Positions 3,399-44,860 of a stretch of DNA of 44,860 nt are shown here, in pieces. Positions within the stretch are counted from its first letter, which is position 1. Every line of letters begins with the position of its first letter. A program made the position numbers and the translations under genes. Below the pieces are notes generated by a model. The model saw nothing but the letters and a program-made list of their open reading frames with translations. It was not told the origin of the DNA and did not search any database. The stretch is from Macrostomum lignano (Eukaryota), in assembly GCA_002269645.1 (NCBI GenBank), contig NIVC01004469.1, positions 1-44,860 of the forward strand, written 5' to 3'.

Positions 3399-3420
3399 GC
3401 AGCGGACGCACAACACCTAC

Positions 3421-24959: not shown

Positions 24960-25188
24960 TGTTAGTCTAGGAAAACTGAGTCAAGTCATGTTTGCAAGCG
25001 AAGGAGAATACCATTGAAAGATCTCTACCGAAGTGACGAAAGGTATTTATTTGACTACATAACACGAAACCACGTACATTGGTAGACAAACGCCATCCGA
25101 TTGGCTGGGGGTTAAAACCATGCACACTGGCAAGCACAAATGTACACAGGTAGGGGTAAAACGATAGCGCGCAAGAATTATCAGTCAC

Positions 25189-25222
<34 letters not shown>

Positions 25223-25260
25223 AGTGAAACAACATGAAAAACCAAAGTACAACCCCAACA
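24960..25260 (-). repeat. 3' LTR (301 bp, (GA)15)
   Basis: TGTTAGTC...CCCCAACA. The PPT-like TTTTGGGGGAAGCAG abuts it on the minus strand, and it contains AATAAA on the minus strand. Confidence 0.95.
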
Positions 25261-25312
25261 CTGCTTCCCCCAAAAGCAGCAAAACAAAAACAAAAGAAAC
25301 CAAGACCTGTCC

Positions 25313-28300
25313 TTAGACCTTATAACAAACAGGTTTACGAGGCCGCAAATCATACGAGCTTTGGGGCTGGAGAGTCTCATCTCCAGAACTCAGCGGGGAG
25401 TCACAGTCAGTCACCTCAGGTTCACGCAGCTCCGAGTCAGAGCCAGCCTTGGCACCCTGAATCGATAGCCCAGCCTGATCCTCGGATCCAGCCGCCTCGG
25501 TCAGCCGCCGATCGGCCTCCGCCTCCGGGCGGCAGCTCCATTGGTTTGCGTGCGCCATCCGCAGTCCACCGTCTGGTAGGTCAGCTGAGGTCACCAGAGC
25601 TGTGTTCCGGCCGTGCTGCACGATGAACTTGGCCGGAACCGGAGCCGTGCCAGGCCGAGCCCTCAGCCAGATGGAGTCACCCACCTGCTCGGTCATCGTC
25701 AGCGGATGGCGCAGCCGGCGTCCCCACATGAGAATGTCCGGCGAGCTGGAACGATTCCCGCTAGGCCTGCTGGTGCGAATGGTTAGGAGCAATTTCTGCA
25801 GGAACTGGTCAAATGGGACCACTTTCGTCCACGTCTTCAGCCCGCCTTTGAGACTCCTCACCAACCGCTCAGCCTGCCCGTTCGATGCCGGATGGTACGG
25901 TGGGGTGTGCATCTCCTGGCAGCCGACACTGTTCAGCCACTGCGAGACTCTTTCCGACCTGAACTCGGGCGCATTATCCGACACTAGCGTCCGAGGCACT
26001 CCATTTCTGGCGAACACCGCTCTCAGCACTCTCAGCACACTGCCTGCAGACCTGTCTGGGACCTGGACAGCTTCTGGCCAACCCGAGTATGCATCAGACA
26101 GCAACAGTAGCAAGCCCACTCCTGGCACCTCACAGTGGTCCATGTGGACCCGGGACCACGGCTCGCTCTCGGATGGCCAGATGTCAATTTTCCGCTGAAC
26201 CACCGGCCGTCTTTCAGCGCACAGCTGACACCGCTCAACAAACTGACGGACATCGCGATCCAGTCCAGGCCACCAGAACTCCTTAGACACATGGGCCTTC
26301 GTATTTTCCGCGCTCGGGTGCACCTCATCATGCGCGGTCTCCAAAATGCGCCGCCAGAGAATGGTCGGAGGCACCACCCTGGTACCATGGATGACCAGCC
26401 CGTTCTCCACAGACAACGCTTCCCGACACGCTTTGTACGGCCGCTCCAGCTGAGAGACCTGACCCCACCGGCCTGTCCTGATTCTCTGCTGGAGTCTTTG
26501 AAGCAGTGAACACCGGGAAGTACTTTCTCTCAGCTCCTCCACGGTAACCAAGCCTCCGTCAGTGATCAACTCAGTCTGATGAACAGACTCCGTCTCAGGA
26601 TCGAGGTTTTCAAAGCTCAGCCTTGATAGAGCGTCAGCATCCTGCATCTTCTTTCCCGGCACATATTCAATCTCGTAATCATAAGCCGATAGCCGCAGAG
26701 CCCACCGGGTTAGTCTGGCAGAAACAGTCTTTGGAAGATTCTTGCAAGGATTCAGAATAAACTTCAAAGGCTCGTGATCGGTCTGCAGAATGAATTTCCT
26801 CCCTAGCAACATTTTTCGAGCTCGTTCAACCGCCCAAACAATAGCCAGCGCTTCTCTCTCGATGTTTGAGTAGTTGGTTTCTGCCTGTGTGAGCGCCCTG
26901 GACATGAACATGACGGGATGTCCAGACTGGACCAGCACCGCGCCCAAGGATTTCTCGCTCGCATCAACTCGAAGACAGACAGGCGCGGAAACATCAAACG
27001 GCTTGATGCACGGGTTTGAGGCCAGACTCCTTTTGACCTCCGAAAATGCCGCCTCAGCCACCGCGTTCCATTCAAAGACCCGGTCACCGCGGCGAAGCTC
27101 CTGAAGAGGCCGACATTTCTCAGAAAAGTTTGGAACCAGCCGTCCATAAAATTGAGCCAGTCCTAGAAATCTCTCCAAATCTTTCTTGGTCTTCGGCACC
27201 TCGACATCCATCACACGTTTCACCATGCCCGGATCGGGTTTTATTCCTTCATCATCAATAATGTGACCAAGAAACTTCAGGCTGTTGGCTTCCATCACGC
27301 ACTTCGCCTCGTTGATCTTGACATTTGCGGCCTTTAACTTGTTGAGCACCTGCTCCCTAATTTTCTGCAACTCTGCCCGGCTCGCAGCACCGATCAGCAC
27401 ATCGTCCTGATATACTATGACACATGGATGGTCTCCCAGGAGCTTTTCCATCACACGTTGAAAAACAGATGGCGACACCTTAATGCCATACGGCAACCGG
27501 TTAAACCTGTAGCAACCAAACGGAGTGTTTATGGTGGTCACCGCTTTCGATTCCTCATCCAGGGGAACCTGATAGTACCAGGGGAACCCGATAGGTCCAA
27601 CCGACAGAACAGCTTCTTGTTGGCTATTTTCGAAAAGGCTGTCTCAATCGAGGGAGTGAGGAAGGTCTGGTCTTGAACCAACCGATTAACAGCCGAATAA
27701 TCTCCACAAATTCTCACGGATGCCCGATCTGACTTCACCGTCACCACAATTGGACTGCCCCATTCCGACGACATCACCTTCTCAACGATTCCAGCACTTT
27801 CCATCAGGTCCAGCTCCTTCTTAACCAAGTGCTTCAGCGCTAAGGGCAGTTCTCTGGCTGCCTGGAAAATTGGCCTAGCTCCAGCACAAAGACGGATTTC
27901 TCCCGTAGCACCAGATATTCCCAACAAGCTCTCATACCTGTTGCTGGCGGCTGACTCATCAGAACTGGCATGGTGCACCGGTGCGAGGACCAGCAGATTC
28001 CGGCCGAGCAGCCCAAACTCCTGTTGGCAGTCGATGACGGGCAGCTCTGCCGCCTTGAAGCGGCCGATGTTGCCAGTGGTCTCCACCAGGCATTCCAGAA
28101 CGCCCATCTGTCTCATAACGTGTCCGTCATACGCGAGCATGCGCGACTTCGCCGACTTCAGCGGGGGCCTTCCGAGCTCATTCCAGATCCTTCGTGAGAT
28201 TAACGAGCAGGAGGCACCGCTGTCCTTCTCCATCAGTACTTCTCTGTGATTGATTTTCACAGTGCAGAACTCGGCAGGCTTTCCTTCTCCACAGTAGAAA

Positions 28301-29220
28301 ACGGGCTCATCACGATAGGAGTCTTCTGGACTCAGCTGAGTGCCGACTGCTTCACCTGGGGCAGCGAAGTGGGTCCTGGCACCGCGGCACACACGGGCAA
28401 AGTGGCCAGCCTTTCCACATTGATTGCAGGTGGCTCTCAGGGCTCGGCAGTCAGCGGGCTTCTGGTGCGATCTCAACCCGCAACGCTGACAGCGCTGGTG
28501 TCCGAAGTTCTGCTTCTGCCTCATAACCGGATTAACGTTGACAGAGCCGGAGCTATCCGGATGGCAGTGAGCTTCATCAGCCGTAGTCAGACCCGCGGTC
28601 GACAGCGACCTAGCCTGGTGCACCACCGAATCCACGAGAGTCGAGTGAGCAGCAGCCTGGGACCCAGCTGAAAAGTTGCTGACCATCAGCAGCTGCTGAA
28701 CATATTCTGTGACCTGATCGACCGTCAGTTCTTGAGTCACTTCACGCTCGAGCACCTTGTTCCTGATGTTCGAGTTGGCCAGACCGGCAATGAGCCGCAT
28801 CTTGATGAGCGCTTCGGCGGGGTCCGCTCCTTCCTTTTTCAGGCTCTCGAACTCGCATACGACGGCTTGCTCCCTGAGACGAGCGGCATAGCTGGTGACG
28901 GTTTCGCCTTCGGCCTGGCGCATAGACATGAAGGCTGTCCTCTCAGCGATCTGCAGTTTCTTCTTGGGCTCCACAAACGCCAGTAGGCATTGCTTGATTT
29001 CAGACCATTTCATCGCAGACGGGGTTTTTGGAGCAACCAGCTGCTTGACTTTTATGAGCTCAGCGACCCCGAGGCAGCCCATGAAAGCGTCGGTCAGCGC
29101 TCGTCTCTCGTCGGTATCTTCGACTCCTTTGGATCTGGCCTGGGCGTCAAATACTTCAACCCAGGCGCGAAGCTCATCTATATTGCTCAACGGCAGCGTC
29201 TCTCTCAATTTGATGCTCAT
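25313..29220 (-). pseudogene. gag-pol copy 1, split by a +2 nt frameshift at about 27585 between PR and RT
   Basis: ORFs 27538-29220 and 25313-27541 match the two halves of the 1301-aa ORF. CCAGGGGAACCCG here versus CCAGGGAACCG in copy 2. Confidence 0.9.
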
Positions 29221-29242
29221 GATCCTGCTTGCGACGCAAAAA

Positions 29243-29541
29243 TGTTAGTCTAGGAAAACTGAGTCAAGTCATGTTTGCAAGCGAAGGAGAATACCATTGA
29301 AAGATCTCTACCGAAGTGACGAAAGGTATTTATTTGACTACATAACACGAAACCACGTACATTGGTAGACAAACGCCATCCGATTGGCTGGGGGTTAAAA
29401 CCATGCACACTGGCAAGCACAAATGTACACAGGTAGGGGTAAAACGATAGCGCGCAAGAATTATCAGTCACGGGAGAGAGAGAGAGAGAGAGAGAGAGAG
29501 ACAAGTGAAACAACATGAAAAACCAAAGTACAACCCCAACA
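29243..29541 (-). repeat. Shared middle LTR (299 bp, (GA)14)
   Basis: Same sequence as the outer LTRs. PPT on one side, PBS on the other. Confidence 0.95.
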
Positions 29542-29593
29542 CTGCTTCCCCCAAAAGCAGCAAAACAAAAACAAAAGAAACCAAGACCTGTCC

Positions 29594-32500
29594 TTAGACC
29601 TTATAACAAACAGGTTTACGAGGCCGCAAATCATACGAGCTTTGGGGCTGGAGAGTCTCATCTCCAGAACTCAGCGGGGAGTCACAGTCAGTCACCTCAG
29701 GTTCACGCAGCTCCGAGTCAGAGCCAGCCTTGGCACCCTGAATCGATAGCCCAGCCTGATCCTCGGATCCAGCCGCCTCGGTCAGCCGCCGATCGGCCTC
29801 CGCCTCCGGGCGGCAGCTCCATTGGTTTGCGTGCGCCATCCGCAGTCCACCGTCTGGTAGGTCAGCTGAGGTCACCAGAGCTGTGTTCCGGCCGTGCTGC
29901 ACGATGAACTTGGCCGGAACCGGAGCCGTGCCAGGCCGAGCCCTCAGCCAGATGGAGTCACCCACCTGCTCGGTCATCGTCAGCGGATGGCGCAGCCGGC
30001 GTCCCCACATGAGAATGTCCGGCGAGCTGGAACGATTCCCGCTAGGCCTGCTGGTGCGAATGGTTAGGAGCAATTTCTGCAGGAACTGGTCAAATGGGAC
30101 CACTTTCGTCCACGTCTTCAGCCCGCCTTTGAGACTCCTCACCAACCGCTCAGCCTGCCCGTTCGATGCCGGATGGTACGGTGGGGTGTGCATCTCCTGG
30201 CAGCCGACACTGTTCAGCCACTGCGAGACTCTTTCCGACCTGAACTCGGGCGCATTATCCGACACTAGCGTCCGAGGCACTCCATTTCTGGCGAACACCG
30301 CTCTCAGCACTCTCAGCACACTGCCTGCAGACCTGTCTGGGACCTGGACAGCTTCTGGCCAACCCGAGTATGCATCAGACAGCAACAGTAGCAAGCCCAC
30401 TCCTGGCACCTCACAGTGGTCCATGTGGACCCGGGACCACGGCTCGCTCTCGGATGGCCAGATGTCAATTTTCCGCTGAACCACCGGCCGTCTTTCAGCG
30501 CACAGCTGACACCGCTCAACAAACTGACGGACATCGCGATCCAGTCCAGGCCACCAGAACTCCTTAGACACATGGGCCTTCGTATTTTCCGCGCTCGGGT
30601 GCACCTCATCATGCGCGGTCTCCAAAATGCGCCGCCAGAGAATGGTCGGAGGCACCACCCTGGTACCATGGATGACCAGCCCGTTCTCCACAGACAACGC
30701 TTCCCGACACGCTTTGTACGGCCGCTCCAGCTGAGAGACCTGACCCCACCGGCCTGTCCTGATTCTCTGCTGGAGTCTTTGAAGCAGTGAACACCGGGAA
30801 GTACTTTCTCTCAGCTCCTCCACGGTAACCAAGCCTCCGTCAGTGATCAACTCAGTCTGATGAACAGACTCCGTCTCAGGATCGAGGTTTTCAAAGCTCA
30901 GCCTTGATAGAGCGTCAGCATCCTGCATCTTCTTTCCCGGCACATATTCAATCTCGTAATCATAAGCCGATAGCCGCAGAGCCCACCGGGTTAGTCTGGC
31001 AGAAACAGTCTTTGGAAGATTCTTGCAAGGATTCAGAATAAACTTCAAAGGCTCGTGATCGGTCTGCAGAATGAATTTCCTCCCTAGCAACATTTTTCGA
31101 GCTCGTTCAACCGCCCAAACAATAGCCAGCGCTTCTCTCTCGATGTTTGAGTAGTTGGTTTCTGCCTGTGTGAGCGCCCTGGACATGAACATGACGGGAT
31201 GTCCAGACTGGACCAGCACCGCGCCCAAGGATTTCTCGCTCGCATCAACTCGAAGACAGACAGGCGCGGAAACATCAAACGGCTTGATGCACGGGTTTGA
31301 GGCCAGACTCCTTTTGACCTCCGAAAATGCCGCCTCAGCCACCGCGTTCCATTCAAAGACCCGGTCACCGCGGCGAAGCTCCTGAAGAGGCCGACATTTC
31401 TCAGAAAAGTTTGGAACCAGCCGTCCATAAAATTGAGCCAGTCCTAGAAATCTCTCCAAATCTTTCTTGGTCTTCGGCACCTCGACATCCATCACACGTT
31501 TCACCATGCCCGGATCGGGTTTTATTCCTTCATCATCAATAATGTGACCAAGAAACTTCAGGCTGTTGGCTTCCATCACGCACTTCGCCTCGTTGATCTT
31601 GACATTTGCGGCCTTTAACTTGTTGAGCACCTGCTCCCTAATTTTCTGCAACTCTGCCCGGCTCGCAGCACCGATCAGCACATCGTCCTGATATACTATG
31701 ACACATGGATGGTCTCCCAGGAGCTTTTCCATCACACGTTGAAAAACAGATGGCGACACCTTAATGCCATACGGCAACCGGTTAAACCTGTAGCAACCAA
31801 ACGGAGTGTTTATGGTGGTCACCGCTTTCGATTCCTCATCCAGGGGAACCTGATAGTACCAGGGAACCGATAGGTCCAACCGACAGAACAGCTTCTTGTT
31901 GGCTATTTTCGAAAAGGCTGTCTCAATCGAGGGAGTGAGGAAGGTCTGGTCTTGAACCAACCGATTAACAGCCGAATAATCTCCACAAATTCTCACGGAT
32001 GCCCGATCTGACTTCACCGTCACCACAATTGGACTGCCCCATTCCGACGACATCACCTTCTCAACGATTCCAGCACTTTCCATCAGGTCCAGCTCCTTCT
32101 TAACCAAGTGCTTCAGCGCTAAGGGCAGTTCTCTGGCTGCCTGGAAAATTGGCCTAGCTCCAGCACAAAGACGGATTTCTCCCGTAGCACCAGATATTCC
32201 CAACAAGCTCTCATACCTGTTGCTGGCGGCTGACTCATCAGAACTGGCATGGTGCACCGGTGCGAGGACCAGCAGATTCCGGCCGAGCAGCCCAAACTCC
32301 TGTTGGCAGTCGATGACGGGCAGCTCTGCCGCCTTGAAGCGGCCGATGTTGCCAGTGGTCTCCACCAGGCATTCCAGAACGCCCATCTGTCTCATAACGT
32401 GTCCGTCATACGCGAGCATGCGCGACTTCGCCGACTTCAGCGGGGGCCTTCCGAGCTCATTCCAGATCCTTCGTGAGATTAACGAGCAGGAGGCACCGCT

Positions 32501-33499
32501 GTCCTTCTCCATCAGTACTTCTCTGTGATTGATTTTCACAGTGCAGAACTCGGCAGGCTTTCCTTCTCCACAGTAGAAAACGGGCTCATCACGATAGGAG
32601 TCTTCTGGACTCAGCTGAGTGCCGACTGCTTCACCTGGGGCAGCGAAGTGGGTCCTGGCACCGCGGCACACACGGGCAAAGTGGCCAGCCTTTCCACATT
32701 GATTGCAGGTGGCTCTCAGGGCTCGGCAGTCAGCGGGCTTCTGGTGCGATCTCAACCCGCAACGCTGACAGCGCTGGTGTCCGAAGTTCTGCTTCTGCCT
32801 CATAACCGGATTAACGTTGACAGAGCCGGAGCTATCCGGATGGCAGTGAGCTTCATCAGCCGTAGTCAGACCCGCGGTCGACAGCGACCTAGCCTGGTGC
32901 ACCACCGAATCCACGAGAGTCGAGTGAGCAGCAGCCTGGGACCCAGCTGAAAAGTTGCTGACCATCAGCAGCTGCTGAACATATTCTGTGACCTGATCGA
33001 CCGTCAGTTCTTGAGTCACTTCACGCTCGAGCACCTTGTTCCTGATGTTCGAGTTGGCCAGACCGGCAATGAGCCGCATCTTGATGAGCGCTTCGGCGGG
33101 GTCCGCTCCTTCCTTTTTCAGGCTCTCGAACTCGCATACGACGGCTTGCTCCCTGAGACGAGCGGCATAGCTGGTGACGGTTTCGCCTTCGGCCTGGCGC
33201 ATAGACATGAAGGCTGTCCTCTCAGCGATCTGCAGTTTCTTCTTGGGCTCCACAAACGCCAGTAGGCATTGCTTGATTTCAGACCATTTCATCGCAGACG
33301 GGGTTTTTGGAGCAACCAGCTGCTTGACTTTTATGAGCTCAGCGACCCCGAGGCAGCCCATGAAAGCGTCGGTCAGCGCTCGTCTCTCGTCGGTATCTTC
33401 GACTCCTTTGGATCTGGCCTGGGCGTCAAATACTTCAACCCAGGCGCGAAGCTCATCTATGTTGCTCAACGGCAGCGTCTCTCTCAATTTGATGCTCAT
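29594..33499 (-). CDS. Intact Gag-Pol polyprotein, 1301 aa (Gag with zinc knuckles, PR, RT, RNase H, IN)
   Basis: CNQCGKAGHFARVC knuckle; PR DSGA; RT YQDD; RNase H DAS..NYSNIEREALA; integrase zinc finger (H..H..C..C) and D-D-E (HMD, SDNAPEF, AER). Confidence 0.97.
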   Translation of the reverse strand: MSIKLRETLPLSNIDELRAWVEVFDAQARSKGVEDTDERRALTDAFMGCLGVAELIKVKQLVAPKTPSAMKWSEIKQCLLAFVEPKKKLQIAERTAFMSMRQAEGETVTSYAARLREQAVVCEFESLKKEGADPAEALIKMRLIAGLANSNIRNKVLEREVTQELTVDQVTEYVQQLLMVSNFSAGSQAAAHSTLVDSVVHQARSLSTAGLTTADEAHCHPDSSGSVNVNPVMRQKQNFGHQRCQRCGLRSHQKPADCRALRATCNQCGKAGHFARVCRGARTHFAAPGEAVGTQLSPEDSYRDEPVFYCGEGKPAEFCTVKINHREVLMEKDSGASCSLISRRIWNELGRPPLKSAKSRMLAYDGHVMRQMGVLECLVETTGNIGRFKAAELPVIDCQQEFGLLGRNLLVLAPVHHASSDESAASNRYESLLGISGATGEIRLCAGARPIFQAARELPLALKHLVKKELDLMESAGIVEKVMSSEWGSPIVVTVKSDRASVRICGDYSAVNRLVQDQTFLTPSIETAFSKIANKKLFCRLDLSVPWYYQVPLDEESKAVTTINTPFGCYRFNRLPYGIKVSPSVFQRVMEKLLGDHPCVIVYQDDVLIGAASRAELQKIREQVLNKLKAANVKINEAKCVMEANSLKFLGHIIDDEGIKPDPGMVKRVMDVEVPKTKKDLERFLGLAQFYGRLVPNFSEKCRPLQELRRGDRVFEWNAVAEAAFSEVKRSLASNPCIKPFDVSAPVCLRVDASEKSLGAVLVQSGHPVMFMSRALTQAETNYSNIEREALAIVWAVERARKMLLGRKFILQTDHEPLKFILNPCKNLPKTVSARLTRWALRLSAYDYEIEYVPGKKMQDADALSRLSFENLDPETESVHQTELITDGGLVTVEELRESTSRCSLLQRLQQRIRTGRWGQVSQLERPYKACREALSVENGLVIHGTRVVPPTILWRRILETAHDEVHPSAENTKAHVSKEFWWPGLDRDVRQFVERCQLCAERRPVVQRKIDIWPSESEPWSRVHMDHCEVPGVGLLLLLSDAYSGWPEAVQVPDRSAGSVLRVLRAVFARNGVPRTLVSDNAPEFRSERVSQWLNSVGCQEMHTPPYHPASNGQAERLVRSLKGGLKTWTKVVPFDQFLQKLLLTIRTSRPSGNRSSSPDILMWGRRLRHPLTMTEQVGDSIWLRARPGTAPVPAKFIVQHGRNTALVTSADLPDGGLRMAHANQWSCRPEAEADRRLTEAAGSEDQAGLSIQGAKAGSDSELREPEVTDCDSPLSSGDETLQPQSSYDLRPRKPVCYKV

Positions 33500-33518
33500 G
33501 ATCCTGCTTGCGACGCCA
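33500..33518 (-). promoter_or_regulatory. Primer-binding site TGGCGTCGCAAGCAGGAT
   Basis: Starts with TGG a few nt inside the 5' LTR boundary. Its complement ATCCTGCTTGCGACGCCA resembles a tRNA-Ser-type 3' end (inference). Confidence 0.75.
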
Positions 33519-33521
33519 AAA

Positions 33522-33750
33522 TGTTAGTCTAGGAAAACTGAGTCAAGTCATGTTTGCAAGCGAAGGAGAATACCATTGAAAGATCTCTACCGAAGTGACG
33601 AAAGGTATTTATTTGACTACATAACACGAAACCACGTACATTGGTAGACAAACGCCATCCGATTGGCTGGGGGTTAAAACCATGCACACTGGCAAGCACA
33701 AATGTACACAGGTAGGGGTAAAACGATAGCGCGCAAGAATTATCAGTCAC

Positions 33751-33784
<34 letters not shown>

Positions 33785-33822
33785 AGTGAAACAACATGAA
33801 AAACCAAAGTACAACCCCAACA
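33522..33822 (-). repeat. 5' LTR (301 bp, (GA)15)
   Basis: TG...CA, followed by the GACAG TSD. Confidence 0.95.
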
Positions 33823-34351: not shown

Positions 34352-35373
34352 TTGATCTCGCAAGCCACGAGTGTAATTTTATTCTCCAACTTGGTTTTCA
34401 TTTGAAGTTGAAAGCCAATATTAGTCTTTAAAGGCACAGACCCTATCAGAACATAGAAGCACTTCGTTTTAATTTTTTAAACTGGTGTGGGATCAATATT
34501 TACCTTCGTCTCATATTTACTTATTTTATTAGTATTATATTGCGATACATATCATATTTGCAAATTTGACTTAAACTCAATCAGTAATTACACTCATACC
34601 TTTCAATATAAGAAAAAATAAATCAGGATCACTCTAAAACATTTCTCAAAACTGAATTCTTGACTTACTGGTTGACCTGGAACTGCGCTTAAATGAAATG
34701 TATAGTTATTTTTGACAAGACACATTTTCTCTAGTATGCATAAAAAAGATTATTTTAATCACGATGAAGGTCACAGATAGTGTTATTATGCATCTTTGCG
34801 CAATTAATAAAAATGGAAAAACCGCGGAATTTCCACGGTTTTTGGACCAACTATATTGCTGATAAAGTACTAGCTATCTAAAGAACGCATATAATTATGG
34901 AAGTTTTATTAGCTCCTTGTTTTAGGTAGCTAAGTATGTGACTTCAAGAATAAAATTAGACTTGAAACTCATCAAACTGAACTTTCGTGCGTAATGTCTA
35001 AATATACTTTTACAGTACATTCAGCCTTATAAATAAGTAGTATACGTTTTTTTGACACAAAGCCGATTTCCTTATGGCGAAATACATAGTAAGTACAGGC
35101 CCAAAAAAATGGCAGAGTCCGAAATTTGCCGTGCACGCAAACTAGCTTTTACGCAATGAATTAACCAATTAGCTGAATCACTTTTACGCAAACACCTGTC
35201 TATCCACCTAAATTCTATCCGCAATGAATGCTGCTAATTACAAGCCCAACCAAAATTCAATTTGACACAAAGCTTATTTCGCGTATAACTTAACGCATTT
35301 AAATTCTTCTTTTCAAGCAGTATTGTATATTTCAACTAGATACAAACACAATTTGACGCACAAATTAGCGAGT

Positions 35374-35936
35374 TTACAAATATTGAGGCAGCACTCGTAA
35401 AACAAAATTGCGTAATTTAGCATACAAGTATCGAAACGAACCAGTGCGAATTATATTCCGTTTAAAAACGCTTCGAATAAAACACTCTAGGTTTCCTCTG
35501 GTAGTCAACTTATGAAAAATATAAAAAATTACCCAAAATCCACAACTTCCACTCTGTGGGTCTTGGATAGCAAAGCGACTATAACACCAATTTTTCGAAT
35601 TTCCACATTCTTTTCCTAGCCATTTTGCTATTCTTGGCAATGGTACTAGACCAAGAGAATCAAAATATTCACCAAGTCGTTTGCTACCGCGACCTGCTCG
35701 ATGACCATAAACCCAAACGCATACCCAATGTTTTCCGGGCAGGTTGGAGACGTCAGTATTAACGATAAAAAATAGTTTTTACCGTCTAAAGGTAAGCGTC
35801 TAAGTCCACCAACAAAGTTTTGAGGAAAAACACCAAGAAATACAACATTTAAAAAATGTGCGCACAATTTCGATACAACATTGCGAAGGAAGCGATCTGT
35901 TACACCACGATCTAGGATAGAATCAATTACTTCCAT
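35374..35936 (-). CDS. Adenain-like cysteine maturation protease (one frameshift at about 35770)
   Basis: Adding one T to the T6 run gives FLGVFP..YFFIVNTDVSNLPGKHWVCVW..EYFDSLG..IQDPQSGSCGFW, with the His/Asp/Gln/Cys catalytic motifs. Confidence 0.9.
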
Positions 35937-37248
35937 ACTGTGCCAGGAACAATGTCGCGAAGTTCAGTAAGTTGCAGTTGCTTGTCAAATATACCTCCAA
36001 ATATGACGTTGTACACGGTACTAGTTGCAGCATTGAAGCGTAACTCTAGTTTTACATTTCCTTCCTTATACAGTTGCACTCCCCGTCCGACACCAGGTTC
36101 ACTTCCAAGACTGAATGCAAAAATTGAGTAACCATTGGCGTAATCCAGCATATTAAATCCAATATCTCGTCCCTGTAGATAGATTCCAAGCTGTTGTAGC
36201 AAAAAATTATACTCTGTCACACAATCATCTCCAAAGTTTGTCTGCAGCGGACGCGATGGTACCGAGTCTCCATTCACAAACACACCAATGCTGCTCACAT
36301 TTGCATGCTCAAAGTTGAACGGATTTGTGTCCATGCTTCCATTGAATGCCTTGTTGCTTACGATTGCCATCAATAAAAGCCGTGGTACCCCACTAGGAAA
36401 CAAATTTTCATGCGTATGGCTAGACGATCCTCGGGTATAGTAAACGTACCAAGGCTTAGACTTCGGTGCGGATATAATGCATTGTGACTTTTAAGTCCAT
36501 GAGCATGTGCACTGATAACACTCGGCGAGGGTTGAACAAACCGCAATCGTAGTTCTGCACGCAAAAACTTGATCTCATAGTCTTTTAAAACCGCACCAGC
36601 TTCTAATTTTGACCCGCTCAGGACAAATTTACTTTTTGCCGGTATGAGCTTGATCCGTAGTGGTGTCTTTGATAGTAGATACCGAGGCTGACGAAACAAA
36701 TCCAAGAATAACGGCCCCGATACAGTGCACCGCCTATTGTTAGCAATGAGCGCCTGCCTCTTTGTTCGTCCATCGTTTTCACTTGTTGCATTCATTTTAC
36801 CAGCTGTATCCTTGTAAAACCCCCACGGCAGTAAACCAGCCTTCTGAGCTGTATGTCCATATTCCAGTAATGTAAGAAGCATAGCCTTGTATGGATACAT
36901 AAAACTACCACCTTCAACTACAGTATCGCCAATAGTAAATTGAACGTCCTCAAACAATGTTCCAATAACCAAATTATTCAAACAAACAAAATTTTTCGTT
37001 GCATCTATAGGTTCACCTTCACTATCACTAACGCTGAAGCATACCGTGAGCACAGTTTCTTGTAGATCCAAATACAAATCGCCTGCAGGCACAACTTCAA
37101 ATTCGATAGGTGATCCTTTTGTAATACCATGTTGCGGTTGAATGTTAGTATATCGATTATCCAAAACACTAAACTGAACAGGACTTTGATCAAATAGCGA
37201 CAATTCACTTTTAAGAGCAGCAATATCAGGTCCAAGCAAATGATTCAT
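35927..37248 (-). CDS. Double jelly-roll major capsid protein (PY/hexon-like; one frameshift at about 36430)
   Basis: KSELSLF..PIEF..YLDLQET..YPYKAML..WGFYKDTAG..LFLDLFRQPRYL, then with one extra G ENLFPSGVPR..AFNGSMDTNPFNF..GYSIFAF..VKLELRF. Confidence 0.9.
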
Positions 37249-37249
37249 G

Positions 37250-37741
37250 CTACTTTTCAAACAGACTAAAAATTTTCTTGCTTGCAGTAGCAGTTCGACG
37301 TTTTCCTATACCACCGGTCTTCTTGCGTTTTCTTTTGTTCACGCGTCCCTTTCCACACTGTCTTGTTCGTCGTTTCTTTTGCCGTTTCTTCTTTCCTAAG
37401 CTTATAGCCACTCCACTGGTTCTTTTCCTTCGCTTTGGTCTCGAAACTGCAGTTGTATTAAACATCTCTTCGCTCGATTCTGTGTCCAAGTGACGCTTCC
37501 GACCCATACCAATTTTTGCTGTCGCACTTTTCAAATACTCCAGACCACGATCCAAGAAATCTTTCTTTGCGTTGCGTAGTACAGGATACACCAATCTGTC
37601 CGCCAAATTTGACAAAAAACCGTAACCTTCGTAAACAGGAATGCCATATCCACCTCCACCTTCAGCAGATCTATTCGGACCAGAATAAAAAGCAAAAATA
37701 GGATCCATTTCAACAGTCTTCTCTTCGTCATGCAATCCCAA
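37250..37741 (-). CDS. Basic K/R-rich core-like protein with a GxG motif (pVII-like, inferred)
   Basis: GGGGYGIPVYEGYGFLSNL plus an Arg/Lys-rich C-terminal half. It lies between INT and MCP. Confidence 0.7.
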   Translation of the reverse strand: MGLHDEEKTVEMDPIFAFYSGPNRSAEGGGGYGIPVYEGYGFLSNLADRLVYPVLRNAKKDFLDRGLEYLKSATAKIGMGRKRHLDTESSEEMFNTTAVSRPKRRKRTSGVAISLGKKKRQKKRRTRQCGKGRVNKRKRKKTGGIGKRRTATASKKIFSLFEK

Positions 37742-37749
37742 TTCATGTG

Positions 37750-38910
37750 TTACTTATACACTTTAGAAAATAGTTTAGCAGTCTTTGCGTCAAGATCATT
37801 TTCGTTTAACCACTGACTTCTTGAGATTGGCATACCTTTCCATTTTACTAGATACAGACGACTTCGATTTTTCGCTCGATCAGTTTCAATAACTTTTTCA
37901 ATTTCATTAGGTGTTTCATCTGTCTCGTTTACCAACATTAGTTCCGCTTGGTTAAACCTTCCTTTCAGCACTTCAAATCCATCTTCAGGGTCCACTAATT
38001 CGTACATTGGCGGGTCTGTCAAGTGTACACGATGAATGCGATATTTTGAATTACTCCAAGTCGTAGTGTATCCTTTTTCAAATGTTCCTCGACGTCGTGT
38101 AATTCTAACCCAATCACCAACTTTAAATTTATTCTCATTCTTTTTAGTGTACGACTTCGCAAACATTTTGTCCCACAAAATTCCTTGTAAATGCGGGTCT
38201 GTCTCTACCCGTTTTGGTGTTTCTCCACTCAAGGATCGATGAGGACTAGAGTTGAAATTATCTTCCAATTGCGGTAAAATGTCAAACCATCGAGGTAAAT
38301 TTTTTGCTCGAAAGTATCGTAATAGACGTTCCTTTAACGAGCGGATAAATCGTTCAGCCATGCTTGCCTTGTAATTGCTTTGGCTAACAAAAAATCGAAC
38401 TCCTTCCTGTTTCAGCATTTGACGTGTAGCTCTTCCGAGAAACTCCATACCAGCATCACCTTGTAAATAAACAGGCTTAAAACCACTTCGAAAAATCTCT
38501 AGTAATACTTGACTAACTTCTGAAGGCTTCTTTGTACGCAATGGTCTTAGTCGTACAACTCTAGTAAAACAGTCGATAAGAACAAGTATGTAACGATAAC
38601 CTCGATTTTCCGTCTTGTATTGAGGTAAATCTGCCAAATCGATTTGAAACTGAAACTTTGCAACTGGTGGCACACTAATTTTTGGAGTTGGAAAGTTTCG
38701 TCGTGTTTTTCGAAATAAATGATGCTCATTTGTTGATCGCACCCAATTATCAACTTCGCGCTTTGCAACTTTGTTCGTAATCTGTGGAAACTTTTTACGT
38801 ACTTCACGAACAAGTATAATCTTGTTACCACTAAATGAAGTAGGCCTGTTCAAGTTAAAAAAAGCATCCGTCAAAAATTCTTCAATTTCCTTACGCACTC
38901 GCTTCATCAT
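37750..38910 (-). CDS. Retroviral-like (rve) integrase with C-terminal chromodomain
   Basis: QIDLAD, LIDCFTR, QGDAGMEF and AERFIRSLK. C-terminal IEKVI..YLVKWKG..SQWL. Confidence 0.95.
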   Translation of the reverse strand: MMKRVRKEIEEFLTDAFFNLNRPTSFSGNKIILVREVRKKFPQITNKVAKREVDNWVRSTNEHHLFRKTRRNFPTPKISVPPVAKFQFQIDLADLPQYKTENRGYRYILVLIDCFTRVVRLRPLRTKKPSEVSQVLLEIFRSGFKPVYLQGDAGMEFLGRATRQMLKQEGVRFFVSQSNYKASMAERFIRSLKERLLRYFRAKNLPRWFDILPQLEDNFNSSPHRSLSGETPKRVETDPHLQGILWDKMFAKSYTKKNENKFKVGDWVRITRRRGTFEKGYTTTWSNSKYRIHRVHLTDPPMYELVDPEDGFEVLKGRFNQAELMLVNETDETPNEIEKVIETDRAKNRSRLYLVKWKGMPISRSQWLNENDLDAKTAKLFSKVYK

Positions 38911-39079
38911 CAGTTAGATTGATGCTAGTCGTTTGACAGTTGCAACAAAAGAACGAAGCCTCGATCGAATCTCCGTCAGTATCCTCGTTGTGCTCCTTTC
39001 CCAGAAACGGCACACATTCAGATTTTATGCAAAAAAACTCACAGAGACGAATCAAAAGTTTTTGGAAGATAGATGACAT
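38891..39079 (-). CDS. Small hypothetical Cys-containing protein (62 aa) overlapping the integrase start
   Basis: ATG start, co-oriented, fills the gap in a tightly packed gene array. Confidence 0.45.
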   Translation of the reverse strand: MSSIFQKLLIRLCEFFCIKSECVPFLGKEHNEDTDGDSIEASFFCCNCQTTSINLTDDEASA

Positions 39080-39191
39080 GGTTTGTCTTATTAAACTATA
39101 TATTTTTCATAAACAAAAAATTAACCTTTTTAAAAAGCTTATAGTGCTCGAATCAATTTTGTTAAAACGTAATCTGTAATTTTAAAACAAC

Positions 39192-39881
39192 TTAATTCAG
39201 TGTTTGATAATTTTCAAACAGACTAAGATCCTCCTTTGCAACAGTTTTTGGAGCAGACATTAGCTCGTTTCGTACATGACGCCCGATTTGGTTTGCTGCG
39301 ATTCCACGTTTTCGAAGAAAGTCTAAAAATGTTTTTAGTCCACTAGGCGGTTGAGTCTCGTGTCGCTTAAGCGGTCTGTCTCGAACAACATATTCCATGA
39401 GATCTTGTATCTCGGCATCAGTCAAATTAGCCAGCATTGGTTCTGCATTCTTGTCCATGTCCGAAAATAGGTTTTGAGCGAGAGCTTCGAAACGTGGTAA
39501 AAAAACTTTAGGAATTTCCCTTGATTCGCTGGCATATGAACTTCTTACAGTAGTCCCTTTGCGAACAAGTGACAGATTGTCCTCGTCTCCAGTGCGATAG
39601 ACTTTGCGCAATTTTAAAAGTTTGTCTTCCAATCTGCTTCGTTTCAATTGAGCTGTGTAATTTGGCTCCTTTTCCATTTCCTTGTCCAAGTTATCCATTT
39701 GGTCTCTCATTTCCACCATATTTTTTGCCAGAGCATCTTGCGGTGCGTCTAAAACTTCAGTTTTTCGAGGTGTCTCAGCAGTTGGTGACGATCCTTGCTC
39801 TGCACCTTGACATGCAGATTGATACACAGATTCAGGTACTAGATACATTCGTTGAAAACTACTACTCTCGTTAGTTCGCAT
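39192..39881 (-). CDS. Hypothetical Maverick protein, 229 aa (MYLVP motif, predicted helical)
   Basis: ATG-initiated, co-oriented and abutting both neighbours. Confidence 0.7.
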   Translation of the reverse strand: MRTNESSSFQRMYLVPESVYQSACQGAEQGSSPTAETPRKTEVLDAPQDALAKNMVEMRDQMDNLDKEMEKEPNYTAQLKRSRLEDKLLKLRKVYRTGDEDNLSLVRKGTTVRSSYASESREIPKVFLPRFEALAQNLFSDMDKNAEPMLANLTDAEIQDLMEYVVRDRPLKRHETQPPSGLKTFLDFLRKRGIAANQIGRHVRNELMSAPKTVAKEDLSLFENYQTLN

Positions 39882-39891
39882 TATATTCCTA

Positions 39892-40320
39892 CTACTTTCG
39901 TTGAATTGATCGTATTAAATTCGCTGCTCCCGCGGCGGTACCAACTACTCCAGACGTTATCCCAAGCGCAGTGCTTATAGCAGGTAGAGCGGCAATAATT
40001 GGAGCCAAAAAAGGTAAAAATCCTCCGTGTTGGACAAGTATTTTCCTTTTTGCAGTAATTGGAGTCTTCTGTTCCAAAAGCTGGCGTATATATCTGCGAT
40101 GCTTCTCAAGTCGTCTTTTGTTACAGTTACTAATTTTAATACGTCCACTAATAATATTAAACAGAAAGTCTACTAGACATCGTATCTCCGACTCTGAAAG
40201 TGTTTGTAAAAAACTTTTTCTCTGCTTTGGATGCTTTAGCCGATAAACAATTTGTAGTAAAAAAGCACACTGACACAATGAGCGAGCATTTTGTTTTCCT
40301 TTTTCTGTTAGTTCGCTCAT
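39892..40320 (-). CDS. Adenovirus pX/mu-like basic core protein
   Basis: Basic helical body, then QHGGFLPFLAPIIAALPAI, resembling adenoviral pX GGILPLLIPLIAAAIGAVP. Confidence 0.75.
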   Translation of the reverse strand: MSELTEKGKQNARSLCQCAFLLQIVYRLKHPKQRKSFLQTLSESEIRCLVDFLFNIISGRIKISNCNKRRLEKHRRYIRQLLEQKTPITAKRKILVQHGGFLPFLAPIIAALPAISTALGITSGVVGTAAGAANLIRSIQRK

Positions 40321-40376
40321 TCTTACAAAACAAATTCACAAAATTTTCTATTACACAATTAATCTTTGCTTATAAA

Positions 40377-41381
40377 TTAGTCCGACCTATGTTTAAAATG
40401 CAGTACGACAACAACGTGTGCTCCCGGATCAAAATTAAACGGTTTTCCGCGCTGGTCCGATAGTCGAATCGAAATCTCGTGAATTTGTTGTCGATTTGTT
40501 TTCAAGTAGTAGGGTGTTTGCAATGCACTGCTATCGCGTATAAGTTCTCCGTTTTTCTTTTGTTGGAGTTCCACAACTCGAAGCAACGGTACTGATGTAC
40601 TTCCCACTGCTTGATACTCGATTATATCTGTGTAACAGTACATGTAAACCGTTTTACTAGGCATCGGAGAAGGTAGCACAGCATCCAAGTAGGTTTTGTT
40701 AATGCGCCAAACACGATTTCTCAACCAATATTGGTGTACTTTGATGTACACTTCTCCTTCCGTTTTTCGAAGATAGTCTCCATGCGAAACAAGTCGTATA
40801 GCTTCACCAGGCGATAGAACACAATAAAAAACATAATAGTTCTCAGGTACTAGCGCTAGAGTATTGTCGAGACTTTTTATCAAATCCAAGTATGAACCAT
40901 CCGGTGGTTGTACACTACCAGCGGCAGGTTTTGATAATTTTTCCGAGACAAGTCCAGAAAGTTTCTTCCAAGAGTCAAATTTGAAAGCGTCCATAAATGT
41001 AACTGGTAGTTCTAATCCAATAGTTTTTTCGCCTGAATTTCGTAAAAGCCAGGCAAATTTTTCATCTGTACCAGACGGTTGCCAGGAAACGTAAGCATCC
41101 AAGTCTGCCTCTGCCCAAACACGACCCCAATAGTTTTTCTTTAATCGTATTATTGAGTCAATGTCCGCAAAATATGGAACTTCAAATCGACGCTCACGAT
41201 GAGCATTTGGCGTCGTAATTGCTCCATGGCACAGTAATTCAACTAGTGCAACCTCGAAGAATCCGTTCAATAAATTTATTGGTTCAGTTAGTCGCACTCG
41301 AAATTCATTAGGCGAGTTGGTTTCGTAACTGATATCGTTTGACGGCAAAAAAACGTAAAAACTCATTTTGAAATAAAACAC
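40377..41381 (-). CDS. Minor capsid protein (penton, PX)
   Basis: FYVFLPSN..N..F...L..PI.L..FEVALVEL at the N-terminus; YCYTDII..VG..PLLRVV..PYY..ISIRLSDQRG..VVLHF at the C-terminus. Confidence 0.88.
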   Translation of the reverse strand: MFYFKMSFYVFLPSNDISYETNSPNEFRVRLTEPINLLNGFFEVALVELLCHGAITTPNAHRERRFEVPYFADIDSIIRLKKNYWGRVWAEADLDAYVSWQPSGTDEKFAWLLRNSGEKTIGLELPVTFMDAFKFDSWKKLSGLVSEKLSKPAAGSVQPPDGSYLDLIKSLDNTLALVPENYYVFYCVLSPGEAIRLVSHGDYLRKTEGEVYIKVHQYWLRNRVWRINKTYLDAVLPSPMPSKTVYMYCYTDIIEYQAVGSTSVPLLRVVELQQKKNGELIRDSSALQTPYYLKTNRQQIHEISIRLSDQRGKPFNFDPGAHVVVVLHFKHRSD

Positions 41382-41423
41382 AAACTAATATTGACAACAG
41401 TTTATAATTTGCTTATAATAATA

Positions 41424-42113
41424 TTACACAAACTTTGCATCACATTCACGAGTATAGACAACTTGTTCATCACCAGAAAATATTCCTGTTCTCAATCGTA
41501 AAAAATCTGGTGTCACTTGCCGCAGGTCAATGAATAAATATGAAAAAGGTTTGTTATTTGTTGCGTCTTCATACACATTCACTAGAAACCTACTATTACG
41601 CGGATACATTTGTCGACCGAGATGTTCAACTGTGGTTCGATCGCGCACACTACGAGTTAGACAAATATAACTAGCTGATAAACTTCGCATGCGTGCTTCT
41701 GGATCAGACTTGTTAAAAAGACCTTGACAAAGGTACAGACAAGTCAAAGGGATATGATGCGCATGCTTTGTAAACATACTAGTAAATTCTGGCAACTTAG
41801 CAATCTCGCTTTGCAAGTCGTCAACAACAACCAAATCGTGTGGTAAAAAACGATTAATCATCTGTGGTGTGAATTCGGGTACAAAAACAATAGGGTCAAG
41901 ACCGCTTTTTTGCCAGCATGTTCTAATTCGTTGTTGATCGTCTGGTTTCAAACTTGATCCATGGCACCAAACAAGACGGCACGGTTTTTTATCAAATAAT
42001 TCTTTTCGTTCAGTCAACAAACGCAACGTCCATTCAGTTTTACCCGAGTTTGAAGGTCCAGCAATAATAAATGTAGAATCGTGAGCTAGTTGCATATTGT
42101 ATGGCTGCTGCAT
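41424..42113 (-). CDS. A32/FtsK-like DNA packaging ATPase
   Basis: Walker A GPSNSGKT, Walker B VVVDDLQ, FTKHAHH and YLFIDL. Confidence 0.93.
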   Translation of the reverse strand: MQQPYNMQLAHDSTFIIAGPSNSGKTEWTLRLLTERKELFDKKPCRLVWCHGSSLKPDDQQRIRTCWQKSGLDPIVFVPEFTPQMINRFLPHDLVVVDDLQSEIAKLPEFTSMFTKHAHHIPLTCLYLCQGLFNKSDPEARMRSLSASYICLTRSVRDRTTVEHLGRQMYPRNSRFLVNVYEDATNNKPFSYLFIDLRQVTPDFLRLRTGIFSGDEQVVYTRECDAKFV

Positions 42114-42115
42114 TT

Positions 42116-42534
42116 TCAAGCACCAAAGCGTTGCTTAACTTGCATAACCTTGGTAACCAACTTCGCAGCTAGTTTTTCTTTCCAACCAGTAGACGGATCG
42201 TGGGCAATCTCTCGTGCACCAGATTCTAATAGCTTATCAGCTTTTAACCTCTCTTGCACGTCAGAATTTTTATCATAGGCCACGTCGTGAAGCATGCACA
42301 AATTGTCAAGCCGATTAATTCCTCGTTGTCCTTTTGCTAGCCTAGCTTGCAGTTGCGTACCTGGACCACAAAACTGATATCCGCCGGGTAAATGTGCTTC
42401 AAATGGTAAATGATTAATTAACCAATTTACGACACCATAACCTTGTTGCTTTTTATTAATCTTTCTAATAGATTTCTTCTTTTACGAATGCTCTTCTTTT
42501 TCTTTTTAAAACCTCGATCTTTCGCTGGAGACAT
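42116..42534 (-). CDS. Parvovirus-VP1u-type phospholipase A2 with a Lys-rich N-terminus (one frameshift at about 42482)
   Basis: HLPGGYQFCGPGT (Ca-binding loop) and GINRLDNLCMLHDVAYD (catalytic HD and downstream D). The ORF track shows only the last 61 aa. Confidence 0.88.
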
Positions 42535-42649
42535 TTTTACAACATATATTTTAGGCATAAATTTTTAAAATTGCTTATAGTATTTACAAAGCTCTCGCAT
42601 AGTGCACCAATCACCAAAGAAAAAAATCAGTTTATTATTATTATTATAC

Positions 42650-43132
42650 TTATTGGCCAGTGCTGCCAAAGCCGCCAAAGCCGCGCCGCTTGGTCGGCGG
42701 CTCAATCATCCGAATCGAATTGTCTGCTTCAGTCACATAGACTGAAGCAAGCACGGCCTGCTCCAGAACCAGTTGTGCAATACTGAGCCCGGCATAGTAC
42801 TCAAAGTCTTCCGGACTGTAATTAAACAAGACTATACAGATTTCACCAGTATAGTCGGGGTCGATTACGCCACCGCCAACAAATAAGCTGTGCAGAGCCA
42901 TGCTGGAACGTCCCGCTATCCTGCCATAGGTACCAGGCGGTAAGCGAATTTTGAGTCCGGTTCGCACACTCCGGGACTCGTAGGCCGGAATGGTACCATC
43001 GACGCCAGCGCAAAGATCATACCCGATCGACCCGACAGTTTTTCGGGTCGGAATCGTTGCCGAATCGTATAGACGTTCAACTAAAAGCTTACGATCAGTT
43101 AGTTGTTGTTGCTGCTGCTGCTCGGGATTCAT
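42650..43132 (-). CDS. dut: Trimeric dUTPase
   Basis: All five motifs are present: GYDL, GRIAGRSS, GVIDPDYTGEI, IAQLV and RGFGGFGSTG. Confidence 0.95.
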   Translation of the reverse strand: MNPEQQQQQQLTDRKLLVERLYDSATIPTRKTVGSIGYDLCAGVDGTIPAYESRSVRTGLKIRLPPGTYGRIAGRSSMALHSLFVGGGVIDPDYTGEICIVLFNYSPEDFEYYAGLSIAQLVLEQAVLASVYVTEADNSIRMIEPPTKRRGFGGFGSTGQ

Positions 43133-43427
43133 GTCGATTCTTGTAGCTGAAAGTTTAAAAAAAAGTTTTTTTTTCTTGAAACATGAACGATAGCACTACA
43201 TTTACGTCTACTACAAGCACAAGCTTAGTCTTGAGAATCTAACTATAAAAAATATACTTTTTCAAATAATTAAACACAATTAAAAAAGTGCTAAAATTAT
43301 AATTTAAACGAATGCCGGTATCATTTATTTATTGTAAATAATGATCAATGAAAAATTAATGATGGTTACAGTCTTCTATAGCATGCTATTACTTTGTACA
43401 ACAAAAGAGATCAGAGCATATTGTTAA

Positions 43428-44543
43428 TTAATTAGCCAAGTGCCAGTGTCCAAAGGGTAGCGAATTAATTGAACTTGTCCAGGATCGCTTCGTATCGAAG
43501 AAGCTTAGTGCAAGTTTTCTTTGTTGCATCAAAAAAAACTTTCTGTTTTCGAGAACGAATGGACTGTATGCGCGAAAACACAAGTTGTCGCTTGTGTAAG
43601 ACTCTTAAATAGTCTTGATGCTTTAAACTGCTCTGTGCGGCTTTAGAAGCAGTACTGCCCAGCTTTGCGACCGATTGAGACTGGAACTTTAAACGATTGC
43701 TGCTTAACCAGACCGGACCGGACTGGACCGGACCGGACTGGACCGGACTCCCCGCCCGCCGCCGCCGCCGCGCCGCCGCCACCACCACCACCACCACCGC
43801 CGCCACACACCACCACGCCGCCACCACCACCACTGCCGCCGCCCGCCCCACACCACCGTGGGACGTATTTGTTGACAGTGTGCTTGCATGGCTTTTGCGA
43901 TAAACGCAGAGCATCAGTCTAGCTGCTCGATTGCTCTATATTGCCAATTACTACCTCGAGATTGAAAATTGCAATTTATTAACAACTGATTAATAACGCG
44001 TGCGAACCAGTCATTGTAGGCCTCGGGAGATAACAGCATGTCACTGTTTGCAATCGTCTCATCAAATGATATTGTCGCAATGTTGGTATTAAAATAGACC
44101 GAAATGATCTCTTCGCTGCTCGAGCCATCGTTGTCGTCTGCTGCTGTTTTCGGTCGAAATAGTGTCACTTTCAAGTGAAAGCAGACTCTTATTAATAAAC
44201 TGGGTGAGCCAATTTTTTCCAATATTTTAAATATGGTTCTCTAAAGACGCAATCAACTCGCCAGGAAGTAACTCGCCAGAGCTGTTGCCTTGTTCAAGAG
44301 TGGGAGTAAATTCGACAAAATTTACCCGACCACGATGAGCTGACTCGCGCAAAGCGATGGACCACCCATCTGGTGGGTTTTCGTCAGGTTTTGCAGCGAT
44401 CCGGTCAGTAATCGTTGCGGTGAAAAACAAGCACCATGCGAGTGAGCATGCAGCTCGGCTTGATTACTGAACTTTTTTCTGCAGATTTGGCATTGTGCAC
44501 GCGGCATTTGTGCACCTAGCTCGACAACGAGCGTATCGAGCAT
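43428..44543 (-). pseudogene. Protein-primed DNA polymerase B remnant: N-terminus and C-terminus only
   Basis: N-part: C2H2 finger CQIC..HAH and FQSRGSNWQYRAIEQL. C-part: LKHQDYLRVL..IRSRKQKV..KLALSFFDTKR..SLPFGHW. Several frameshifts; no exonuclease or polymerase motifs in between. Confidence 0.78.
43705..43862. repeat. GC-rich low-complexity tract: (GACCG/GACTG)n followed by (CCG)n/(CCA)n
   Basis: Directly visible. Confidence 0.9.
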
Positions 44544-44860
44544 AATATTAATAGATGATCCGGTTTGTCATTTGCGGCTGTAAGAAAAATGATGATTTGG
44601 TTAGTTATAGGTATAGCTGACACGTTTACTATTAGAGAAAACAATTGGTAAATAAATAAAAAAAGACAAAATGTTTTAAAAGAATGCATCGCAACTGCGA
44701 TTGACAGCAATTTTACTTGTTAAGTTTAGTTATTAACAGAGATTAAAAAATCCTTGACATGGTTAAGAATATTATTCAATTCATGAGTGTTTTGAACGCC
44801 CATAACAAACTTTTTCGAAAAAAATATGTATACAAAAAAGCCTTGGTTTTGATGCTGATC

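Follow-up and report, generated by a model that had tools for sequence, protein, structure and literature searches.

What copies a Polinton/Maverick element whose polymerase gene has lost its middle? The question is raised by the last kilobases of contig NIVC01004469.1 (C4469) of the 764-Mb Macrostomum lignano assembly; the whole contig, 44,860 nucleotides long, is the window analysed here. The original prediction described a zinc finger, an FQSRGSNW..MLCVY segment, a G-rich and pentamer tract and an LKHQDY..IRS..KLALSFFDTKR..PFGHW segment running to a stop at 43428, all of which are present. It took them for the N and C termini of a Maverick polymerase (pPolB) fused across a microsatellite. 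Having compared the window with related copies in the same genome, we consider it probable that the locus is a member of a recently amplified Maverick family in which pPolB has been stripped of its catalytic part while the terminal-protein frame was kept, and which likely relies for its copying on the polymerase that rare full-length relatives encode.

The element and its genes

The Maverick fills the final 9.8 kb of the window (Table 1), from a terminal repeat at 35036 to the end of the contig, which truncates it. Sibling copies with the same deletion continue for ~4.9 kb beyond this point to a right repeat; between termini the element measures 14.7–15.3 kb on seven contigs, and ~14.7 kb is typical of the family. 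Both of the ~104-bp terminal inverted repeats were observed on sibling contigs. The expectation that the rest of the virus is complete holds for the siblings; the contig of the window terminates inside the element.

Table 1. Features of the Maverick in the window
Feature	Position	Strand	Remarks
Target-site duplication, 6 bp, left copy	35030..35035	n/a	matching right copy beside the right terminus on C4161
Left terminal inverted repeat, ~104 bp	35036..35139	+	103/104 identical to left repeat of full-length relatives; measured on sibling C3539
Likely adenovirus-like cysteine protease gene, approximate ends	35370..35937	-	187 aa open in siblings; no listed ORF of 100 aa or more in window
Likely major capsid protein gene	35927..37248	-	name from size and position; no Pfam match
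rve integrase with chromodomain, 386 aa, open	37750..38910	-	PF00665 (over cut-off), PF00385
Adenovirus protein X-like core protein, 142 aa	39892..40320	-	PF05829, E 2.3e-6
Likely minor capsid protein, 329 aa, open	40377..41366	-	name from size and motifs; no Pfam match
Likely packaging ATPase, 229 aa, Walker A visible	41424..42113	-	name from size and motifs; no significant Pfam match
Likely parvovirus-type PLA2-like gene, approximate ends	42115..42534	-	139 aa open in siblings
dUTPase, 160 aa	42650..43132	-	Pfam; within block 12% divergent from full-length relatives
pPolB relic, last ~66 codons	43428..43628	-	behind a stop in the family's usual frame; T-run frameshift in 30/30 copies
Deletion junction, at 43629	43623..43635	-	3,163 nt gone relative to full-length relatives; 1-nt overlap; out of frame
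G-rich and pentamer tract, native Gly-rich linker from terminal protein to vOTU	43707..43857	-	tandem arrays
Zinc finger and predicted terminal-protein domain, ~aa 1-207	43890..44507	-	frameshifted in window; open in 27/30 copies
Ser189 codon, G-S-x-W loop, predicted priming (linking) residue	43950..43952	-	invariant in 15/15 aligned domains
TATA-binding-protein-like gene, 3' end	44781..44860	-	PF00352, E 2.2e-7; 185-aa frame in siblings; contig stops here

The capsid, penton and ATPase candidates are open frames of fitting size and motifs for which Pfam returned no significant match. The names capsid, ATPase, protease and PLA2-like are likely ones, drawn from size, gene order and motifs; in particular, we take the genes at 35370..35937 and 42115..42534 to be a protease and a PLA2-like gene from their motifs. 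The major capsid candidate is split into two ORFs in the window and forms a single 440-aa frame in four of the five siblings checked. No second polymerase frame occurs anywhere in the deletion-family element.

Two deletion copies carry apparent internal tandem duplications, of ~1.8 kb around the capsid gene on C877 (L025) and of part of the right arm on C593 (L036). The TATA-binding-protein-like gene lies directly upstream of the polymerase gene (L004:1080-1634, PF00352 in two stretches), is preceded by a splice-acceptor-like site and is 99% identical in the full-length relatives; a figure legend in PMC8502044 mentions such genes for related non-animal viruses. Elsewhere in the window, a tandem pair of gypsy-type LTR retrotransposons occupies 24960-33822, with the middle LTR in common, three 301-bp LTRs and units that are 99.8% identical, one with an open 1,301-aa frame and the other split. 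Two further frames look host-like: we take the 579-aa one at 17714-19453 (-) to resemble a DEG/ENaC channel and the 281-aa one at 21967-22812 (+) to resemble a flavin-dependent oxidoreductase.

A single out-of-frame deletion

Against a full-length relative the window aligns as two blocks joined at 43629, with 3,163 nt absent between them and one base of overlap, so the fragments are indeed the two ends of pPolB. The deleted section held the protease, exonuclease, endonuclease VII and palm. The left break falls at about codon 291-293 from the ATG, just ahead of a Y-D-C-F motif at 294 that we presume to be the vOTU catalytic site, and the right break lies ~66 codons short of the end of the gene. 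The deletion puts the two ends out of frame with each other, and translation would end at a stop one codon beyond the join. A 24-nt motif spanning the junction is found exactly on 30 contigs (reversed control, 0), and the breakpoints have an imperfect 8-nt likeness that is offset from the join by three bases. Because the frameshift in the C-terminal relic is present in all 30 copies, the family goes back to one founder.

The repeat tract, once proposed as the site of the fusion, is not that site, and its proposed part in mediating the deletion finds no support. The poly-Gly/pentamer tract is also part of the full-length frame and ends ~78 nt short of the break, and Gly- or Ala-rich linkers occupy the equivalent place in related families of the same genome at ~40-55% identity; it is thus a domain linker, not the junction. 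Its length varies between copies, with 88-114 nt between fixed anchors. In three related polymerases (L114, L115 and L116, on C2529, C889 and C272) the poly-Gly linker starts with L-R-G-G. L-R-G-G is the C-terminal motif of ubiquitin, after which OTU proteases cut, and at the start of the linker it makes a candidate release site for the terminal protein.

The retained frame is open in most copies

The deletion family has an open frame of ~300 aa comprising zinc finger, terminal-protein domain and linker. Of the 30 junction copies, 21 have it open for 293–301 aa, up to the stop one codon beyond the join. In another six the domain reads through without a break and the frame shifts in or after the G tract, and in three, the window included, it is broken earlier. 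The single-base indels that the original prediction had to bridge are present in the window. They are specific to this contig, and 27 of the 30 copies have an unbroken N-terminal part. Compared with C593, the window lacks 29 bases in 43000-44860 and three in 35036-42999, with few substitutions, and two sibling copies over the same 9.8 kb are two gap openings apart. Since the indels are concentrated in the last 1.9 kb and few between siblings, they look like low-coverage errors at the contig end. The start at 44543, as first assigned, is in frame in the window only; siblings begin at the ATG matching 44507.

Other data sets contain the same sequence. A contig from an independent 2024 run covers the open frame over L004 1121-2528 (1,408 bases) with zero differences, and short-read contigs of other studies carry deletion-family alleles on either side of the junction. 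One of these (X18, 2728-3534) crosses it, with a short side of 30 letters, one under the threshold of the tool, and was hence left out of the tally. Among the matches listed, contigs of X15, X18 and X3 break off at the junction with full-length flanking sequence. In the four runs compared with L004, of 24 available, three presumed RNA and one unlabelled, read cover was flat and is silent on transcription; the single joint in them, at L004 320-505, was considered as a splice and rejected, being on one contig and having non-GT..AG ends.

The retained domain resembles a terminal protein

The order of domains in polinton pPolB, as given in sections of a preprint by Krupovic and colleagues (bioRxiv 10.1101/2024.03.18.585575), is terminal protein, vOTU, exonuclease and palm, and the vOTU is predicted to release the terminal protein from the normal polymerase. 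The same sections describe the PRD1-like terminal protein as a sheet of four to five strands with two helices, with a linking Ser or Tyr between helix 2 and the last strand and a Gly or Pro nearby, and name the little-finger/PAD domains of Y-family polymerases, including 4IR1, as the best PDB matches of terminal proteins.

We modelled aa 1-215 of a natural open copy together with 14 relatives (15 sequences). The model has a pLDDT of 79 and a PRD1-like beta/alpha order (E49-55, E63-69, H83-101, E106-121, E134-142, H163-186, E192-207). G188-S189 is invariant in all 15 rows and sits in the loop 187-191, which connects the long helix to the last strand. When 48,161 PDB representatives were searched by structure, ranks 1-9 were all Y-family polymerases, 4IR1 included (Z 5.4-7.0, rmsd 2.8-4.5, 97-118 residues aligned, mostly in the C-terminal little-finger region). 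All nine Z scores are below 8, a range the tool calls common, and unrelated folds appear from Z 5.2; the modest scores are offset by the fact that the identity of the matches had been predicted beforehand (bioRxiv 10.1101/2024.03.18.585575). Compared with viral models, the domain scored best against a C2H2-domain protein from an adintovirus (E 5.8e-9) and the PolB of a MELD virus (E 1.2e-5). On this evidence the retained domain is predicted to be a terminal protein of the PRD1/adenovirus type, with Ser189 as the linking residue.

Other searches added little. Foldseek against the PDB gave no match to the model at E <= 0.001, nor did sequence searches for proteins of near length, with a single sequence or with the alignment. 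A PDB sequence search returned, among the matches listed, Gly-linker matches only, an Atlas search with the domain gave no usable match, and a domain search over 1.84 billion representatives gave four matches. Of these four, P0002 and P0004 look like gene-model chimeras from the M. lignano genome; P0004 was also rejected as a second N-C fusion, its halves lying ~3.2 kb apart on C272.

With the break one or two codons ahead of the catalytic Cys of the vOTU, the ~300-aa product resembles the piece that the vOTU would release. Substitutions give no separable sign of selection on it since the deletion. Against the full-length copy, dN/dS is 0.27 in the terminal-protein domain and 0.08 in the dead C-terminal relic (the dUTPase, PLA2-like, PX and ORF229 genes were left out for want of anchors in the full-length copy); since even the dead relic stands at 0.08, the differences in the terminal protein predate the deletion. 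Within the deletion family, variants in the domain amount to one synonymous and one non-synonymous change. The family appears too young for either measure to inform on selection after the deletion.

The deletion family has spread recently

We read 52 termini and sorted them into classes by 6-mer target duplication. Junction-type copies fell into 17 classes, 16 of them two-sided, with 0.09 matches expected by chance; full-length copies fell into two and a third, rearranged form into one. Seven contigs (six distinct sites) have both ends, a matching duplication and the junction in between, and the 30 junction contigs over 17 sites include duplicate haplotypes. Three contigs (C4161, C4450 and C84) have mismatched end duplications, which suggests that the assembler swapped flanks between near-identical copies. 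Mean divergence between deletion copies is 0.08% (19 copies, 171 pairs, ~4.7 kb), which indicates a very recent burst. The same junction thus recurs at different insertion sites, and the proposed lineage, amplified without a polymerase yet with virion and integrase genes as open frames, is borne out; that this amplified family is real we regard as practically certain.

Full-length relatives share its ends

All 13 candidates for a 1-kb probe from the deleted part were scored: three matched in full at 100% (C2373, C1136 and C84, at two sites), four matched in part at 98-99%, and six were weaker. C1136 and C2373 have an uninterrupted polymerase frame of 1,411-1,412 aa, and the C1136 protein matches PF03175 (DNA_pol_B_2) and PF02945 (endonuclease VII). 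These relatives have the catalytic pPolB domains that the deletion family has lost, and the latter is therefore a non-autonomous derivative, not an autonomous Maverick. The anticipated sibling with a full PolB and matching terminal repeats is found: the repeats of the two forms are identical at 103/104 and 104/104 positions. As in a satellite or defective-interfering genome, replication ends are thus held in common with a helper candidate in the same host, on three full-length contigs at two sites. The 17:2 ratio of sites is no more than compatible with a lowered yield of the helper or with packaging in virions. The terminal proteins of the two forms are 94% identical, with ~6% of residues different. 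Mutual complementation of the two forms was considered and rejected, all 14 other genes tested in the full-length C1136 being free of stops.

Divergence between the two forms amounts to 119/984 sites immediately right of the junction, 152/7,567 further right and 95/2,954 to the left. The high value just right of the junction indicates that none of the full-length copies sampled is the direct parent, and, as it is the deletion form that departs from the other two forms in this block, the family is a mosaic.

The third form, 8.5 kb long with the same ends, is found on C4827, C300 (twice) and C2428, at one insertion site. It keeps most of the polymerase gene, minus ~1.15 kb of the middle (the exonuclease/endonuclease part), is without integrase and most virion genes, and has stops and frameshifts. 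Deletions do therefore occur in this family, and this one did not spread.

One deletion copy contains a nested element near the capsid/protease border (C4072:14540-22994, L101-L102), flanked by a 6-bp duplication. It is 8.4-8.8 kb long, with repeats of ~1.2 kb and termini that run opposite to the usual Maverick start; the same termini occur on C24, C37, C811, C1165, C1166 and C2932. Its pPolB is a different one, spread over several frames, and neither a capsid nor an integrase frame reaches 150 aa, making it a polymerase-only counterpart. The genome as a whole is rich in Mavericks, with at least 119 PF03175 matches (91 of 974 candidates scored) in several families and many frames above 1,100 aa.

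How the family may be copied

In the scheme we propose, a single deletion removed the protease, exonuclease and polymerase domains and left the predicted terminal-protein frame open. In a cell with an active full-length relative, the polymerase of that relative would replicate excised deletion copies from the common terminal repeats, and the integrase of either element would then reinsert them. A shorter genome, spared a 1,400-aa protein, could gain copies more quickly. Under the self-synthesis model excised copies need a protein-primed polymerase and the family encodes none, so the enzyme would have to come from a relative; judging from gene content, we find it quite likely that it is supplied in trans. 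That the element makes its own ~300-aa terminal protein and uses it for priming is a more tentative suggestion, less likely than not. Put together, these parts would make a satellite Maverick, with the polymerase polyprotein divided over two genomes, that primes its ends with a stand-alone terminal protein it makes itself, takes only the catalytic polymerase from its helper, brings its own capsid and integrase, and has outrun that helper 17 to 2 in sites. We consider this full version unlikely; if true, the split behind the separate terminal protein of adenoviruses would be happening again in a living lineage.

The alternative that fares best, with somewhat less than an even chance, is an ordinary non-autonomous derivative whose helper gives both primer and polymerase, the terminal-protein frame being open only through recency. 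Copies 0.08% apart are too young for decay, no selection signal can be separated, and mobile polB-less polintons are reported from butterflies too (bioRxiv 10.1101/2025.02.07.637071). Most break positions would also spare the domain, and since any break past ~codon 207 (85% of the gene) does so, its retention may be incidental. However, the break lies at the very border of terminal protein and vOTU, stop included, where the target between the end of the domain and the catalytic Cys is an estimated ~6% of the gene (88 of 1,411 codons). Furthermore, stand-alone terminal-protein genes have arisen independently in adenoviruses and in a coral polinton (bioRxiv 10.1101/2024.03.18.585575), and the capsid-less deletion form of the same family is at one site only.

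It is improbable that no viral polymerase is needed, the element being cut and pasted by its own integrase and gaining copies through host repair or replication. The open integrase frame and clean 6-bp duplications would suit such a route, which, with 17 sites against two, need not invoke a few active helpers as our preferred scheme must, and the butterfly preprint, in the sections that treat it, leaves open how polB-less polintons are mobilised (bioRxiv 10.1101/2025.02.07.637071). Yet the genome contains full-length relatives whose ends are practically identical, the block next to the junction derives from a different lineage, as fits recombination between co-replicating elements, and self-synthesis by pPolB is the accepted model (PMC6431247).

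We hold it very improbable that slippage in the tract fused both ends of pPolB into a short hybrid protein, the N-C fusion originally envisaged. One frame in the window does pass from MLCVY through the tract to LKHQDY, and the last ~35 codons of the relic (window 43431-43545) share the frame of the terminal-protein gene behind two stops, leaving room for an unseen splice. But the tract belongs to the full-length gene and the junction lies outside it; the deletion is out of frame; the through-frame is absent from 18 of the 19 other copies scanned, the exception, C814, being also broken upstream; and no GT(A/G)AG donor occurs in L004 1601-3000. The shared frame of the last codons is probably chance, at 1 in 3.

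An assembly artefact in which a collapsed repeat conceals several kb of polymerase can be all but dismissed, for although the window is at an error-rich contig end, many copies stop at contig ends and some flanks are swapped, one exact junction lies in unique sequence on 30 contigs, 14.7-15.3 kb elements span both termini on seven, and short-read contigs from elsewhere carry deletion-family alleles on both sides.

Comparison with known systems

The replication of Mavericks in animals is still a model and not an observation, and their priming protein has only lately been predicted, as the N-terminal domain of the polymerase. The M. lignano family offers a natural dissection, with recent copies that have primer, integrase and virion genes but lack a polymerase, and complete relatives whose ends match theirs. 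Because the terminal proteins of the two forms differ by ~6%, the supply of polymerase in trans and the ownership of the primer can be asked about directly in animals. If the primer is a mere leftover, this is still an unusually well-resolved case of a polymerase-less Maverick outnumbering its helper.

Non-autonomous Polintons are reportedly part of the 2006 description of Polintons. In its overall plan, the element is closest to the Alpha adintovirus type of Polinton/Maverick as presented in parts of PMC8502044. It is alike in its terminal repeats, 6-bp duplication (named as a Polinton/Maverick feature in PMC3014272), rve integrase, PLA2-like and protein X-like genes and likely capsid, ATPase and protease genes, and in having full-length relatives with an OTU-type PF03175 pPolB. 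Unlike that type, the amplified M. lignano form is without the defining polymerase; all that is left of the gene is the terminal-protein domain with its linker and a dead remnant of the C terminus.

Internally deleted DNA transposons and defective-interfering genomes likewise keep their cis ends, miss the enzyme and outnumber the complete element, and among DNA transposons non-autonomous families outnumber autonomous ones as a rule, according to portions of PMC3014272. The M. lignano form differs from them in retaining nearly all of its genes, virion module and integrase included. In literature other than most subscription journals and Repbase, we found no report of an amplified polymerase-less family that retains its terminal protein, and passages of PMC8502044, PMC11296320, PMC6431247 and bioRxiv 10.1101/2024.01.15.575659 do not describe this arrangement.

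The closest parallel for mobility is the polB-less polintons of Pieris mannii and another insect group (bioRxiv 10.1101/2025.02.07.637071). As described in parts of that preprint, these are also repeat-flanked and apparently mobile, with close polB-bearing relatives in the same species, but their loss of polB is tied to LINE or gypsy cargo (the LINE case with two variants), whereas M. lignano has a clean deletion, at 17 sites, with an open terminal-protein frame. For the retained gene, the parallel is with the stand-alone terminal proteins of adenoviruses and of a Stylophora coral polinton, which have the same terminal protein/vOTU split border, predicted fold and position of the linking residue in the sections of bioRxiv 10.1101/2024.03.18.585575 that cover them. 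That work links stand-alone function to helical extensions. The retained M. lignano frame ends in a low-complexity linker. Adenovirus and Stylophora genomes still encode a polymerase, which for the deletion family resides on another element. Mobile polB-less polintons are thus already known; what M. lignano brings together is a clean deletion at the border of terminal protein and vOTU, an open primer frame, 17 sites against two, and a helper candidate in the same genome.
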